This document shows, piece by piece, positions 5,130-8,069 of a DNA stretch of 35,152 nucleotides (position 1 is its first letter; each line of letters opens with the position of its first letter). Under the pieces are notes generated by a model. That model saw only the letters and a list, made by a program, of their open reading frames with translations. It had not been told where the DNA came from and searched no databases. A program made the translations under genes and the position numbers. Origin of the DNA: a bacterium (GTDB lineage: Bacteria > Patescibacteriota > Minisyncoccia > Phycocordibacterales > SBAW01). The stretch spans positions 1 to 35,152 of the forward strand of contig JAUSIO010000004.1 of assembly GCA_030647845.1 (NCBI GenBank), in the 5' to 3' direction.

Positions 5130-8069
5130 ATGGATAGGTACGATCATAAAAAGATAGAAAAGAAGTGGCAGAAGCGATGGGAGGAGTCGCAAGCGTTTCG
5201 TGCTGACGATGACTCCAAAAAGCAAAAAGACTATATCCTAATTGAGTTCCCGTACCCGTCGGGCGATGGCTTGCATGTTGGGCACGTGCGCTCGTGGACC
5301 GCGATGGACGTGGTGGCGCGCAAGCGGCGCGCGCAGGGCCGCAATGTCTTGTACCCAATCGGTTGGGATGCGTTTGGCTTACCAACCGAGAACTATGCGC
5401 TCAAAACGGGCAAAGACCCGCGCGTGGTAACCCGCGAAAATACCGACAACTTCCGTCGGCAAATCAAATCGCTCGGCATTTCCTTCGACTGGTCTCGCGA
5501 GGTCAACACCACCGACCCAAACTATTACAAATGGACACAATGGATTTTTCTCCAGCTATTCAAAAAAGGTCTTGCGTACAAGGCACAGACGCAAATTAAC
5601 TGGTGTCCAAAAGACAAAATCGGTTTGGCAAACGAAGAGGTGTTGACCCATTCGACAAGCTCAGGGCAGGTAGCCGTCTGCGAGCGTTGCGGCACGCCGG
5701 TTGAAAAGCGTCTCAAAGAGCAGTGGATGCTCGCGATTACCAAATATGCACAGCGCTTGTACGACGACCTCGACACGGTGGACTACATCCCCGCCGCAAA
5801 AATCGGCCAGCGCAACTGGATAGGCCCGAGCGAAGGCGCTGCAATTGAGTTTTCTATAAGCTCCGCAGGTGAAACCTGCGGAAGCGCAAAAGTGTTTACT
5901 ACGCGGCCGGACACTCTATTTGGCGCAACATACTTGGTACTGGCTCCCGAGCACGCATTGGTGCACGAGCTTGCCGAAAAAGTGGAAAATAAAGACGAAG
6001 TAGTACGATATATCACAGCGGCAAAAAATAAAAACGAGATTGATAGGACAACAGAAGGGAAGGAAAAAACAGGGGTGGAATTAAAGGGGGTCAAAGCAAT
6101 CAACCCAGCAAACAAAGAAGAAATCCCGATTTTTGTTGCCGACTATGTGTTGGGCGGCTATGGAACAGGTGCCATTATGGCAGTACCTGCCCACGACGAA
6201 CGTGACTTCGCGTTTGCAAAAAAATTTGATTTACCTATCAAAATCGTTATTGAGCCACATATAATACAAACAACCGGGTCGAGTCCCTATCGAGAAGGGG
6301 AGCCAATCGTTTCTCGCGATGGCATTATCGCCATAGTCAAACATTGGTCGGAAGAAAAATATATTGGTTTACAGTGGAAAAAAGTTGATTGGCATACGTT
6401 TATCACTGGTGGTATTGAGAAGGATCAAACACCGGAAGAAGCTGGTATCACAGAGATTCGCGAAGAAACTGGATTCTTGACCCCCAAATTAGTCAAAGAG
6501 TTTGGCGTGGTGCACGGACAGTTCTACCACGTGCCTAAAAAAGAAAATCGTCTTGTCCACGGACATATTCTTTATTTTGAACTTCAGGACGATACGCATG
6601 AGAAAATATCGGAGAAGGAGAGCGCAATACACGATATCCACTGGTTGAGTGCAGAAGAGCTTGTTAGTTGGCTTACCCCAAAAACGCATACTTACGCACT
6701 CGAGCTACAACAAAAAGGAGTCGCGCTTTACACGGGAGAAGGGATCCTCACTAACTCTGGAAAGTTCAACGATCTCTCAAGCGAAGATGCAAAAAAGAAA
6801 ATTACCGAGTTTGTGGGGGGCAGGTGGGTGACGACCTTTAAACTCCGCGACTGGGTGTTTAGCAGGCAGAGGTATTGGGGCGAACCGATACCTCTTATAC
6901 ATTGTCAAAAGGACGGTTGGGTTGCCGTGCCAGAAGCAGATTTGCCAGTGGAGTTACCCGTGGTTGAAAAATATCAGCCGACCGATACCGGCGAGTCGCC
7001 CCTTGCCAATATAAAAGAGTTTGTGGACACGGCGTGTCCTAAATGTGGGGGGCTGGCAAAACGCGAGACCGACGTGATGCCTAACTGGGCGGGCAGTAGT
7101 TGGTACTGGTTGCGCTACTGTGACCCACACAACGACAAAGAGTTTGCCTCGCAAGAAAAACTTGACTACTGGGTCGGTTCTGTTGCACGGCAAGGTTTAA
7201 CCTTGCCGCAGAGCGGCGGAGTGGATTGGTACAACGGTGGGATGGAGCACACGACACTTCACCTTTTATATTCGCGTTTTTGGCACAAATTTTTATTTGA
7301 CATTGGCGTGGTGCCCACCAGCGAGCCGTATATAAAGCGCACCAGCCACGGGCTGATTTTGGCCGCGGATGGCTCAAAGATGTCAAAGTCAAAAGGCAAT
7401 ACGGTGAGCCCCGACGAGCTGGTTGAGCGCTTTGGCGCCGACTCCCTGCGCTTGTACGAGATGTTTATCGGGCCCTTTGACCAACCGGTGGCGTGGAGTA
7501 CCAACAGTATTTTGGGGGTCCGGCGTTTTTTGGAGAGGGTGTGGGCGCTGGGTGCAAGGACATCCGATGTCCCAGGGACATCGGATGTCCAAACGGAGGT
7601 GTTGCTCAACCAGACAATCAAAAAAGTTTCTGATGATATTGAGCATTTAAAAATGAATACCGCTGTCTCGGCGTTGATGATTTTGGCTAATCAATTGGCA
7701 GAACTAGAAAAGGTGCCCCATGTTGCGTACAAAACACTCTTGCAATTACTTGCGCCGTTCGCGCCGCACATAACGCACGAGCTTGCTGAAACATTAGGAT
7801 TGGAGCGCGCACAGTGGGAAGTATGGCCCGCATTTGACGAGTCAAAAATCGCTGCAACAACTGCGGTAGTCGCGGTGCAGGTCAACGGCAGGCTACGTGC
7901 CTCGATAGAACTTGCCACAGGGACGACAAAGGAGGAGGTCATCGCCCGCGCTCGCGCCGAGCCCGCAGTGGTGCGCTATCTTGCAGGCGGCAAAGAACAA
8001 AAAGTGGTCTATGTGCCGGGCAAGGTCGTCAATTTTGTGCTCGAAGACCCTGAAGAATTGAAGAGTTGA
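5130..8069 (+). CDS. leuS: Leucine--tRNA ligase (979 aa) carrying an internal Nudix-like insertion and two palindromic inserts
   Basis: HIGH-type motif ([10 protein letters not shown]), CP1 editing-domain signatures ([27 protein letters not shown]), KMSKSKGN, and zinc knuckles (CERCG, CPKCGG). Confidence 0.95.
   Translation: [979 protein letters not shown]
6255..6720 (+). other. Nudix-hydrolase-like domain inserted within LeuRS (about residues 376-530)
   Basis: [23 protein letters not shown] (6408..6476) fits the Nudix box Gx5Ex7REUxEExGU at 7 of 9 fixed positions (E7->Q, R15->T). It lies between ...[11 protein letters not shown] and [13 protein letters not shown], where the LeuRS linker is normally short. 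Confidence 0.7.
7188..7208. repeat. 21-nt perfect palindrome in frame inside leuS
   Basis: CGGCAAGGTT-T-AACCTTGCCG, within the segment translated [10 protein letters not shown], just upstream of the conserved [15 protein letters not shown] block. Confidence 0.7.
7558..7590. repeat. 33-nt perfect palindrome (two self-complementary 15-mers) in frame inside leuS
   Basis: GGACATCCGATGTCC-CAG-GGACATCGGATGTCC. Each 15-mer is itself a hairpin. 33 nt equals 11 codons, translated [11 protein letters not shown]. Confidence 0.85.

Follow-up and report, generated by a model that had tools for sequence, protein, structure and literature searches.

A Nudix-fold domain within the editing domain of a leucyl-tRNA synthetase from Patescibacteria: a predicted hydrolase

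Does a leucyl-tRNA synthetase (LeuRS) harbor a Nudix hydrolase, and what might such an enzyme do there? This question is raised by the gene leuS on contig JAUSIO010000004.1 (assembly GCA_030647845.1, Patescibacteriota), in whose product an earlier note, made from the sequence alone, had recognized an additional block of residues resembling a Nudix hydrolase. The term window designates the whole stretch of DNA that was analyzed, i.e. positions 1 to 35,152 of this contig (35,152 nucleotides). Few enzymes are as conserved as the aminoacyl-tRNA synthetases, and to our knowledge bacterial synthetases rarely host foreign catalytic domains. Profile searches and structure prediction confirm that the block is a genuine domain of the alpha/beta/alpha Nudix fold, an observation that is far beyond chance. 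On balance, we regard it as rather probable that this domain is an active pyrophosphohydrolase, which acts on a nucleoside polyphosphate (a diadenosine polyphosphate, ApnA, or a non-canonical nucleoside triphosphate, NTP) and is anchored to the CP1 domain of LeuRS; here the fold, its conservation, position and breadth, the intact host and the gene adjacency are shown, whereas catalysis, substrate class and role are inferred.

Identity and position of the inserted domain

The central features of the locus are:

5130..8069, + strand: leuS, open reading frame (ORF) of 979 amino acids, bacterial-type LeuRS hosting the insert (ORF list, TIGR00396, match to 1h3n, AlphaFold2 (AF2) model)
6255..6725, + strand: inserted Nudix domain, residues 376-532, 157 amino acids (gap versus 1h3n, Pfam, model, Foldseek, relatives)
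6408..6476, + strand: Nudix box, residues 427-449, with 7/9 consensus positions; E442, E445 and E446 are putative metal-binding glutamates, Q433 and T441 replace E and R

The earlier note's LeuRS of 979 residues was confirmed. In a scan of NCBIfam, model TIGR00396 yielded 929.8 bits (cutoff 548.4), and the protein is homologous over its full length to the LeuRS of T. thermophilus (1h3n, E=2.6e-203). The score above the equivalog cutoff and the presence of the HIGH and KMSKS motifs identify it as a bacterial leucine--tRNA ligase. The Pfam profile NUDIX (PF00293), which the earlier note had named as a check, matched the insert alone with 48.1 bits (E=1.5e-12) and the same region of the whole protein with 42.7 bits, at a cutoff of 21.1. 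The box was found exactly as it had been described. The strict consensus Gx5Ex7REUxEExGU is not completely matched by the window copy, which agrees in seven of the nine fixed positions and has Q433 and T441 at positions 7 and 15, respectively; the glutamates of the REUxEE stretch (positions 16, 19 and 20) are present as E442, E445 and E446. In a six-frame scan of the window, no other string resembling a Nudix box was found.

The expectation of a Nudix sandwich was borne out by structure prediction. An AF2 model of the domain, calculated from an alignment of 44 insert sequences, has a mean predicted local distance difference test score (pLDDT) of 94.8 and a predicted template modeling score (pTM) of 0.89. 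Both in this model and in that of the full-length protein, the box falls on helix 435-447. A Foldseek comparison of the domain model with the PDB gave 507 matches at E<=0.001, and the best 50 are all Nudix enzymes. The top match is the MutT/Nudix protein 2azw from E. faecalis, with a template modeling (TM) score of 0.84 and a probability of 1.00. It is followed by the Ap6A hydrolase Ndx1 of T. thermophilus, the Ap4A hydrolase of A. aeolicus and CT771 of C. trachomatis (ranks 2-6 include 1vc8, 3i7u and 4mpo; TM scores to the Ap6A/Ap4A hydrolases are 0.78-0.80), and then by MutT1 of M. smegmatis, NudB and RppH. A profile of the insert family gave the same picture when compared with PDB sequences, matching solved Nudix proteins down to E=3e-10.

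A whole-protein search, which also recovered the window protein itself from NCBI, identified the closest relatives of this LeuRS. Of the 120 closest sequences, 111 carry an insert at this position; its length is 151-164 residues, mostly 157. Conservation counts out of 111 refer to these embedded copies. With these sequences, the following features of the LeuRS core were assigned:

5274..5285, + strand: HVGH (class I HIGH motif), residues 49-52; H49, G51 and H52 invariant in 120/120 relatives
5811..6254, + strand: CP1 editing domain before the insert, residues ~228-375 (PF13603, residues 228-379 corresponding to model positions 1-145/185)
5898..5915, + strand: TTRPDT (T-rich editing motif), residues 257-262, invariant in 120 relatives
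6189..6206, + strand: AHDERD editing motif (HDERD = residues 355-359), HDxRD invariant in 120 relatives
6726..6854, + strand: CP1 editing domain after the insert, residues 533 to ~575, end approximate (second stretch of PF13603; residues from 533 onward align to Thermus 376 onward)
7377..7391, + strand: KMSKS motif, residues 750-754; K750, S752, K753 and S754 invariant in 120/120 relatives

According to the earlier note, an in-frame block of about 155 residues lies between the end of CP1 and the next conserved segment. The in-frame block is real and comprises 157 residues, but its location had to be revised. In the alignment to 1h3n, residues 1-375 correspond to Thermus residues 1-363 and residues 533-746 to Thermus residues 376-580; residues 376-532 stand in place of a CP1 loop of 12 residues. 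The nine insert-less proteins among the closest 120 have 5-56 residues at this site. The editing domain profile PF13603 matches LeuRS with 204 bits in two separate stretches and is broken at model position ~145/185, whereas it continues unbroken to position 184/185 in one insert-less relative. Judged by this interruption, the insert sits inside the CP1 editing domain and not beyond its end. It begins 17 residues past the invariant AHDERD motif.

The junction residues V373 and P376 are conserved in 107/111 copies each. In the full-length AF2 model, which was calculated from 96 sequences (mean pLDDT 89.4, pTM 0.80), one continuous strand (374-379) leads from CP1 into the Nudix sheet, and the Nudix region and both linkers have pLDDT values of 90-97. 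The model suggests that the guest domain is grafted rigidly on CP1 and does not hang on a floppy tether. As the earlier note had stated, the insert has no palindromic ends: neither inverted nor direct repeats were found at the borders 6255/6725. Insertion by a mobile or repeat element was therefore rejected; in its repeat-free borders the insert differs, as had been claimed, from the small window-specific insertions with palindromes at other places in leuS, which are listed at the end.

The residues of the TTRxDT, GTG and HDxRD motifs are invariant in the 111 insert-bearing and the 9 insert-less relatives, and HxGH and KMSKS are likewise invariant with and without insert. Because the synthetic and the editing motifs are intact, the Nudix module appears to be an addition and no substitute for editing; to judge from these motifs, LeuRS keeps its aminoacylation site and its editing site and replaces nothing by the predicted added activity. 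The idea of a Nudix domain that compensates for a dead editing site was rejected for the same reason. The CP1-containing bacterial LeuRS enzymes of T. thermophilus (1h3n) and E. coli (3zgz/4aq7) have the same motifs (HIGH, KMSKS and, for editing, T-rich and Asp). The difference from the Thermus enzyme is a predicted enzyme domain of 157 residues in place of a 12-residue CP1 loop, and relatives host further domains.

In line with the earlier note, no description of a LeuRS-Nudix architecture was found in open-access papers and bioRxiv. NCBIfam contains no dedicated model for it, and only the generic leuS model matches. Both the gain of domains by synthetases and the fusion of Nudix domains to other proteins have precedents. 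An isoleucine--tRNA ligase with an N-acetyltransferase domain (NF040702) is likewise a synthetase that gained an enzymatic domain and kept aminoacylation, and the INS editing insertion of ProRS is another extra enzymatic domain in a synthetase. In contrast to these two cases, the guest is here a Nudix domain and is placed within an existing editing domain. The bifunctional NadM-Nudix proteins (NMN adenylyltransferase/ADP-ribose pyrophosphatase) also combine a Nudix domain with an ATP-using nucleotidyltransferase fold of the HxGH type. However, they are terminal fusions and not insertions, the Pro that their ADP-ribose pyrophosphatase carries at position +16 after the box is F465 in the insert, and the NadM-Nudix models of NCBIfam match only weakly (E=0.025-0.08, far below cutoffs).

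Distribution, conservation and descent

The insert is no rarity: the earlier note's proposal to determine the breadth of the insertion led to the 111 of 120 closest LeuRS that carry it, and PF00293 is already annotated on such LeuRS proteins in public precomputed Pfam tables. The source names of these LeuRS proteins are Paceibacterota, Kaiser-, Nomura-, Taylor-bacteria and similar. A scan of species-representative genomes detected relatives in at least 186 species-level genomes, most of them with Patescibacteria labels; this count is a lower bound and is biased to the Q-type copies introduced below, as the query was a tighter alignment with a conserved stretch. Among 80 loci retrieved, about 76 modules reside inside ORFs of LeuRS length and 3 are free-standing. 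Among 1.84 billion cluster representatives, which were searched exhaustively with a profile, 178 matched at E<=1e-30. A fusion unique to the window was rejected: a word search with the insert alone had returned only free-standing proteins, which is a sensitivity artefact, and full-length and profile searches found many fusions.

The mean pairwise identity of the 111 embedded copies is 39% for the insert, compared to 65% for the LeuRS core. Within the box, G427 (111/111), E442 (110/111), E445 (103/111), E446 (111/111) and G448 (109/111) are conserved. A family-specific set of conserved residues consists of R396, W416, K417, W421, K470, N473, R474, L485, E497, H501 and W505. Most of these residues belong to two regions:

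6522..6551, + strand: putative specificity region (X-loop equivalent) F465-Y466-H467-V-P-K470-K-E-N473-R474, a beta-hairpin 16-25 residues past the box
6618..6644, + strand: second conserved cluster E497...H501...W505, short helix 495-498 and strand 501-506 (conservation)

In the full-length model, the hairpin of the first region is made up of strands 452-467 and 472-485. K470 is present in 110/111, N473 in 107/111 and R474 in 99/111 copies, and positions 465 and 466 are mostly aromatic. In the second region, E497 (110/111), H501 (101/111) and W505 (109/111) are invariant or near-invariant also in the Q-type subgroup and in free-standing homologues; E497 is a candidate for a further metal ligand or a general base. 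The family is thus recognizable by a signature of its own, namely [FY][YF]HxPKxxNR plus E497/H501/W505. This signature, an extra N-terminal strand and the variants at box positions 7/15 distinguish the insert from the small Nudix hydrolases of the MutT/ApnA type (2azw; Ndx1, 1vc8; A. aeolicus, 3i7u; CT771, 4mpo). The latter have the same fold (TM scores of 0.67-0.84, target-normalized), the box helix with three glutamates, a similar size of ~130-160 residues and an aromatic residue ~17 positions past the box, but are free-standing and only 17-21% identical to the insert.

Box positions 7 and 15 covary. E is paired with R in 57 members of the family, Q with A, M, S or T in ~52, and another residue (H/M/Y/V/L) with K in 9; the full consensus box is found in 57/111 relatives. 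The window protein and all free-standing copies belong to the Q-type subgroup. Within this subgroup, E442, E446 and eight further signature residues are invariant or nearly so, and conservation equals or exceeds that of the canonical type; for K470, N473, R474, E497, H501 and W505, conservation is at least as high as in the canonical type.

The distances between inserts rise with those between the cores (Mantel r=0.24; none of 999 permutations reached that value), which is consistent with a faster-evolving module that has been inherited mostly vertically. A recent horizontal acquisition was rejected, because the low GC content spans the flanking CP1 region too, the insert co-diverges with the core, and it is present throughout the clade. 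The latter two findings argue that the insert is old. The sequences point to an ancient insertion into a CP1 surface loop across Paceibacteria-type Patescibacteria, and the layout appears to be the norm in this large group with tiny genomes. The conservation pattern suggests that the insert is under purifying selection across these species-level genomes, at least 186 in number. With respect to base composition, GC is 0.43-0.46 over 5950-6850 (second half of CP1 plus Nudix insert) compared to 0.48-0.58 elsewhere in leuS; the drop is probably a compositional effect of Lys/Glu/Ile-rich sequence and no mark of recent transfer.

Free-standing homologues have 162-190 residues and are up to 58% identical to the window insert. 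In six of nine distinct loci (L numbers designate retrieved loci), such a copy is located directly upstream of leuS and on the same strand:

L001, 8001-8492, same strand as leuS: free-standing Nudix homologue
L003, 7632-8204, same strand as leuS: free-standing Nudix homologue
L004, 376-867, same strand as leuS: free-standing Nudix homologue
L007, 1056-1610, same strand as leuS: free-standing Nudix homologue
L051, 4001-4441, same strand as leuS: free-standing Nudix homologue
L091, 684-1220, same strand as leuS: free-standing Nudix homologue

In L070, the free-standing copy lies 2.4 kb upstream of leuS. The LeuRS proteins next to these genes differ at the insertion site. That of L004 has only a short loop, and the adjacent gene alone supplies the module; in the LeuRS of L007 (1774-4503), this CP1 loop is occupied by an insert of ~100 residues that is unrelated and has no Pfam match; those of L001 and L051 have their own divergent Nudix domain with a canonical box embedded beside the free copy. 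The free copy of L001, which has a Q-type box, is 64% identical to the inserts of other lineages versus 31% to the insert of its own neighbor. In a neighbor-joining tree (no support values), the free-standing proteins are nested in the embedded clade at 2-3 places. This would favor a secondary escape of the free-standing copies from the embedded clade. The upkeep of the module across so many genomes, together with its position by leuS even when split off, argues for a functional or regulatory tie between LeuRS and the hydrolysis of nucleotides or polyphosphates.

Catalysis, substrate and role

In Nudix hydrolases, specificity motifs lie in the X-loop ~17 residues past the box (PMC5389931, PMC6856373). 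ApnA hydrolases are recognized by a Tyr ~17 residues after the box (PMC5389931, PMC6856373), ADP-ribose pyrophosphatases by a Pro at +16, and NADH pyrophosphatases by the motif SQPWPFPxS (PMC6856373). As the box of the insert ends at residue 449, position +16 is F465 (F in 87 and Y in 16 of the 111 copies) and position +17 is Y466. The Pro of the ADP-ribose pyrophosphatases is absent at +16, where F465 is found instead, and the NudC motif SQPWPFPxS is absent from residues 450-532. An assignment to MutT, RppH, ADP-ribose pyrophosphatase or NudC was rejected, because either the curated score remains below its cutoff or the hallmark motif is missing.

Conservation and the models indicate that the Nudix domain is very probably catalytically active. 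In the proposed mechanism, helix 435-447 would present E442, E445 and E446 for the binding of Mg2+ or Mn2+, and E497 might aid metal binding or serve as the base. The basic residues R396, K417, K470, R474 and H501 would grip the polyphosphate chain, and the aromatic residues F465, Y466, W416, W421 and W505 would stack the base; the large number of conserved basic residues would fit a polyphosphate substrate. This substrate could be a dinucleoside polyphosphate (Ap4A-Ap6A) or a non-canonical (d)NTP that is cut to a nucleoside monophosphate and the remainder. Embedding would hold the module in strict stoichiometry and proximity with LeuRS, which may serve as an anchor for nucleotide-clearing hydrolases in minimal genomes.

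Several observations weigh against an active nucleoside polyphosphate hydrolase that is tied to LeuRS. With regard to the substrate, the closest solved structure, 2azw, is itself uncharacterized, and the Foldseek E-values of MutT1, NudB, RppH and ADP-ribose pyrophosphatases are of the same order as those of the ApnA hydrolases or within about tenfold. Position 466 is aromatic (Y in 71 and F in 30 of 111), and Tyr is not invariant. The curated NCBIfam equivalogs give no support for a specific activity: the best RppH model reaches 21.1 bits (NF001937, cutoff 139), the others reach 12-20 bits at cutoffs of 116-259, and the MutT model NF008044 reaches 17.4 bits at a cutoff of 148. With regard to catalysis, the window copy lacks the consensus E at position 7 and the consensus R at position 15, and 8/45 Q-type members contain a Q at E445; reduced or altered catalysis is a possible consequence of these deviations. 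With regard to the link with LeuRS, the free-standing copies of L090 and L092 are located away from leuS, and the adjacency of the others could stem from local duplication rather than from a functional link. Furthermore, a second, unrelated free-standing Nudix gene was observed between nusB and rnc, downstream of leuS, in L001 (12698-13198) and L004 (4528-5025); besides the embedded module, those organisms therefore have a further Nudix protein.

The domains found in other LeuRS proteins widen the picture (P numbers designate relatives). Two to three modules of the same Nudix subfamily are present in P0037, P0021, P0064, P0048, P0131, P0132, P0149 and in an ORF of 1539 residues in L076. The extra modules, some of which show faint Nudt16-like matches, lie close to where CP1 begins, around position 20 of the editing-domain profile. 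A Ham1/ITPase domain is hosted by P0028, P0065, P0099 and P0169, in P0028 and P0065 at the early CP1 site; the complete Ham1 domain of P0169 (197 bits) follows the catalytic core and precedes the anticodon-binding domain. P0071, P0111, P0124 and P0093 host a HAD_2 phosphatase domain, and P0037, P0040, P0097 and P0114 a serine/alpha-beta-hydrolase domain. On this comparison of sequences, the CP1 loops of the clade are general insertion hot spots. An unannotated insert of ~150 residues was also observed at the early CP1 site in the LeuRS of L004 (914-3760). Nudix, Ham1/ITPase and HAD proteins are the classical families of nucleotide house-cleaning. House-cleaning NTP pyrophosphatases (Nudix, Ham1/ITPase) and HAD nucleotidases are normally stand-alone cytosolic proteins, whereas the same families are threaded into LeuRS here. 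The added Ham1, HAD and Nudix modules point to general nucleotide house-cleaning at least as much as to LeuRS-specific proofreading. The proofreading or alarmone-clearing role suggested by the earlier note is neither supported nor contradicted; MutT1, NudB and RppH match the domain model nearly as well as the Ap4A/Ap6A hydrolases do. A more far-reaching proposal is that the editing domain of Paceibacteria LeuRS serves as a platform on which hydrolases directed at nucleotides (one to three Nudix modules, Ham1/ITPase, HAD) are docked, and that its ancestral Nudix domain acts in cis, e.g. on Ap4A-type by-products or on the 5' end of bound tRNA. We advance this only tentatively, as a possibility that falls well short of being probable.

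One alternative to the main reading is a clearing activity coupled in cis, by which the Nudix domain would hydrolyze adenylylated side-products of LeuRS, namely Ap4A/Ap3A and other ApnN formed from leucyl-adenylate (Leu-AMP) and NTPs. This appears rather doubtful, although the best structural and profile matches among characterized enzymes are the Ap6A/Ap4A hydrolases 1vc8, 3i7u, 4mpo and 1f3y, and an aromatic residue is found ~17 positions past the box, where ApnA hydrolases have their Tyr. It would also suit the junction to CP1, which is rigid in the model, and the proximity of the module to leuS even when split off. The synthesis of Ap4A by an aminoacyl-tRNA synthetase is established for LysRS (PMC6883034). 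However, ApnA is no substrate of the Ham1/ITPase and HAD domains that are co-inserted in relatives, and the Tyr in the X-loop is not invariant. In addition, LeuRS is a weak producer of Ap4A in comparison to LysRS or PheRS. In mammals, LysRS-made Ap4A is removed by the Nudix Ap4A hydrolase NUDT2. LysRS is a synthetase making a dinucleoside polyphosphate (PMC6883034); there, however, synthetase and Nudix enzyme are separate, eukaryotic proteins, whereas LeuRS-Nudix is one polypeptide and its link to Ap4A is hypothetical.

Alternatively, hydrolase activity might have been lost, at least in copies with Q/T-type boxes, and the module might be a nucleotide-sensing regulator of LeuRS, comparable to NrtR, or a structural or interaction domain. 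The window copy does deviate at 2/9 consensus positions, Q replaces E445 in the Q-type members mentioned above, and the insert evolves faster than the core. Nevertheless, E442 and E446 are (near-)invariant in every subgroup, the other signature residues are as conserved in the Q-type, and about half of the family has a perfect consensus box. The covariation of positions 7 and 15 resembles the upkeep of a structural pair and not decay, and the Glu at position 7 is a minor contributor to MutT catalysis. The covarying pair and the equally conserved Q-type argue against a decaying, non-catalytic remnant, so that we consider this alternative improbable. The "degenerate binding module" that the earlier note had offered as a second option is weakened by the same data.

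It is still less plausible that the domain is an RNA-end enzyme, which would act like RppH, NudC or Dcp2 on the 5' end of bound tRNA or of another RNA; we judge this very improbable. CP1 binds the acceptor end, where the 5' and 3' ends of tRNA meet, and the insert profile matches AvrM14 Nudix effectors (E=3.6e-9), which we take to be mRNA-decapping enzymes, and more weakly Dcp2. The weak NCBIfam matches are mostly to RppH models, RppH is among the Foldseek matches, extra modules of relatives show the faint Nudt16-like matches, and many basic residues are conserved. Yet RppH equivalog scores of 15-21 bits contrast with cutoffs of 116-259, the TM scores to RppH (0.54-0.64) are below those of ApnA hydrolases and 2azw, and mature tRNA normally carries a 5' monophosphate.

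Finally, the likelihood that a chimeric assembly or wrong calling of the ORF produced the insert is practically nil: the contig does come from a metagenome assembly and GC drops over 5950-6850, but the reading frame runs uninterrupted, the insertion occupies the same site in 111/120 relatives from NCBI, JGI, ENA and Logan assemblies, ~76/80 species-representative loci carry an embedded module, and V373/P376 (107/111) are modeled as part of one strand. With more than 100 independent assemblies sharing the insertion site, an assembly chimera is effectively refuted. The earlier note had named an artefact, or a missing profile match together with a non-Nudix fold, as grounds for abandoning the domain; what was found is a significant Pfam match, a Nudix fold and an insertion shared by these assemblies.

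A complete predicted hydrolase within the editing domain of an essential synthetase, in an abundant uncultured lineage with minimal genomes, should surprise synthetase specialists and is directly testable; as yet it has no bearing on a long-standing open question. LeuRS proteins with several Nudix domains or with ITPase, HAD or serine-hydrolase domains suggest that nucleotide house-cleaning has been consolidated on one essential scaffold. If true, this would be a concrete, testable case of extreme genome reduction reshaping core machinery. If the editing domain is indeed a docking platform, LeuRS would possess a third quality-control activity, at the level of nucleotides, which is undescribed for any aminoacyl-tRNA synthetase. 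The inserts define an uncharacterized Nudix subfamily by its own signature, which is open to direct expression and assay. Moreover, the CP1 loop tolerates insertions of 5 to >160 residues, which is useful for engineering.

Other features of leuS and of the window

The neighbors of leuS in the window are ordinary: a flavodoxin-like protein, the GTPase YchF, a DUF5671 membrane protein, a sigma70-r4/HARE-HTH protein, YceG and MnmA. According to gene annotation and the six-frame box scan, no free-standing Nudix gene adjoins leuS in this window.

The coding sequence of leuS contains a perfect 16+16 nt palindrome at 7558-7590, GGACATCCGATGTCCC G GGGACATCGGATGTCC, which encodes ..DVPGTSDV... It is unique in the window, and as many matches were obtained in 0/100 shuffles; the surrounding block of the model has a lower confidence (pLDDT ~76). 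A window-specific in-frame insertion at 7173-7220 (residues 682-697, ..QSGG) is absent from >80% of relatives and includes a perfect 10+10 hairpin at 7188-7208, CGGCAAGGTT-T-AACCTTGCCG. Residues 686-694 are, apart from 977-979, the sole segment of the full-length model with pLDDT <50. The insertion looks like a small palindromic element that was inserted in frame into a loop. A second window-specific insertion, the eight residues TSSGQVAV at 5655-5678 (residues 176-183), is located in the zinc-binding region of LeuRS and is likewise absent from >80% of relatives.

Outside leuS, two perfect short palindromes at 19890-19911 (CGCCTGCCTGC followed by GCAGGCAGGCG) and 28098-28117 (CCTGCCTGCC followed by GGCAGGCAGG) have the common core GCAGGCAGG/CCTGCCTGC and may be copies of one small repeat. 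An unusual pair of domains, an ATP-cone and an Mrr_cat restriction-endonuclease-like domain, is encoded by the ORF at 14258-15118.

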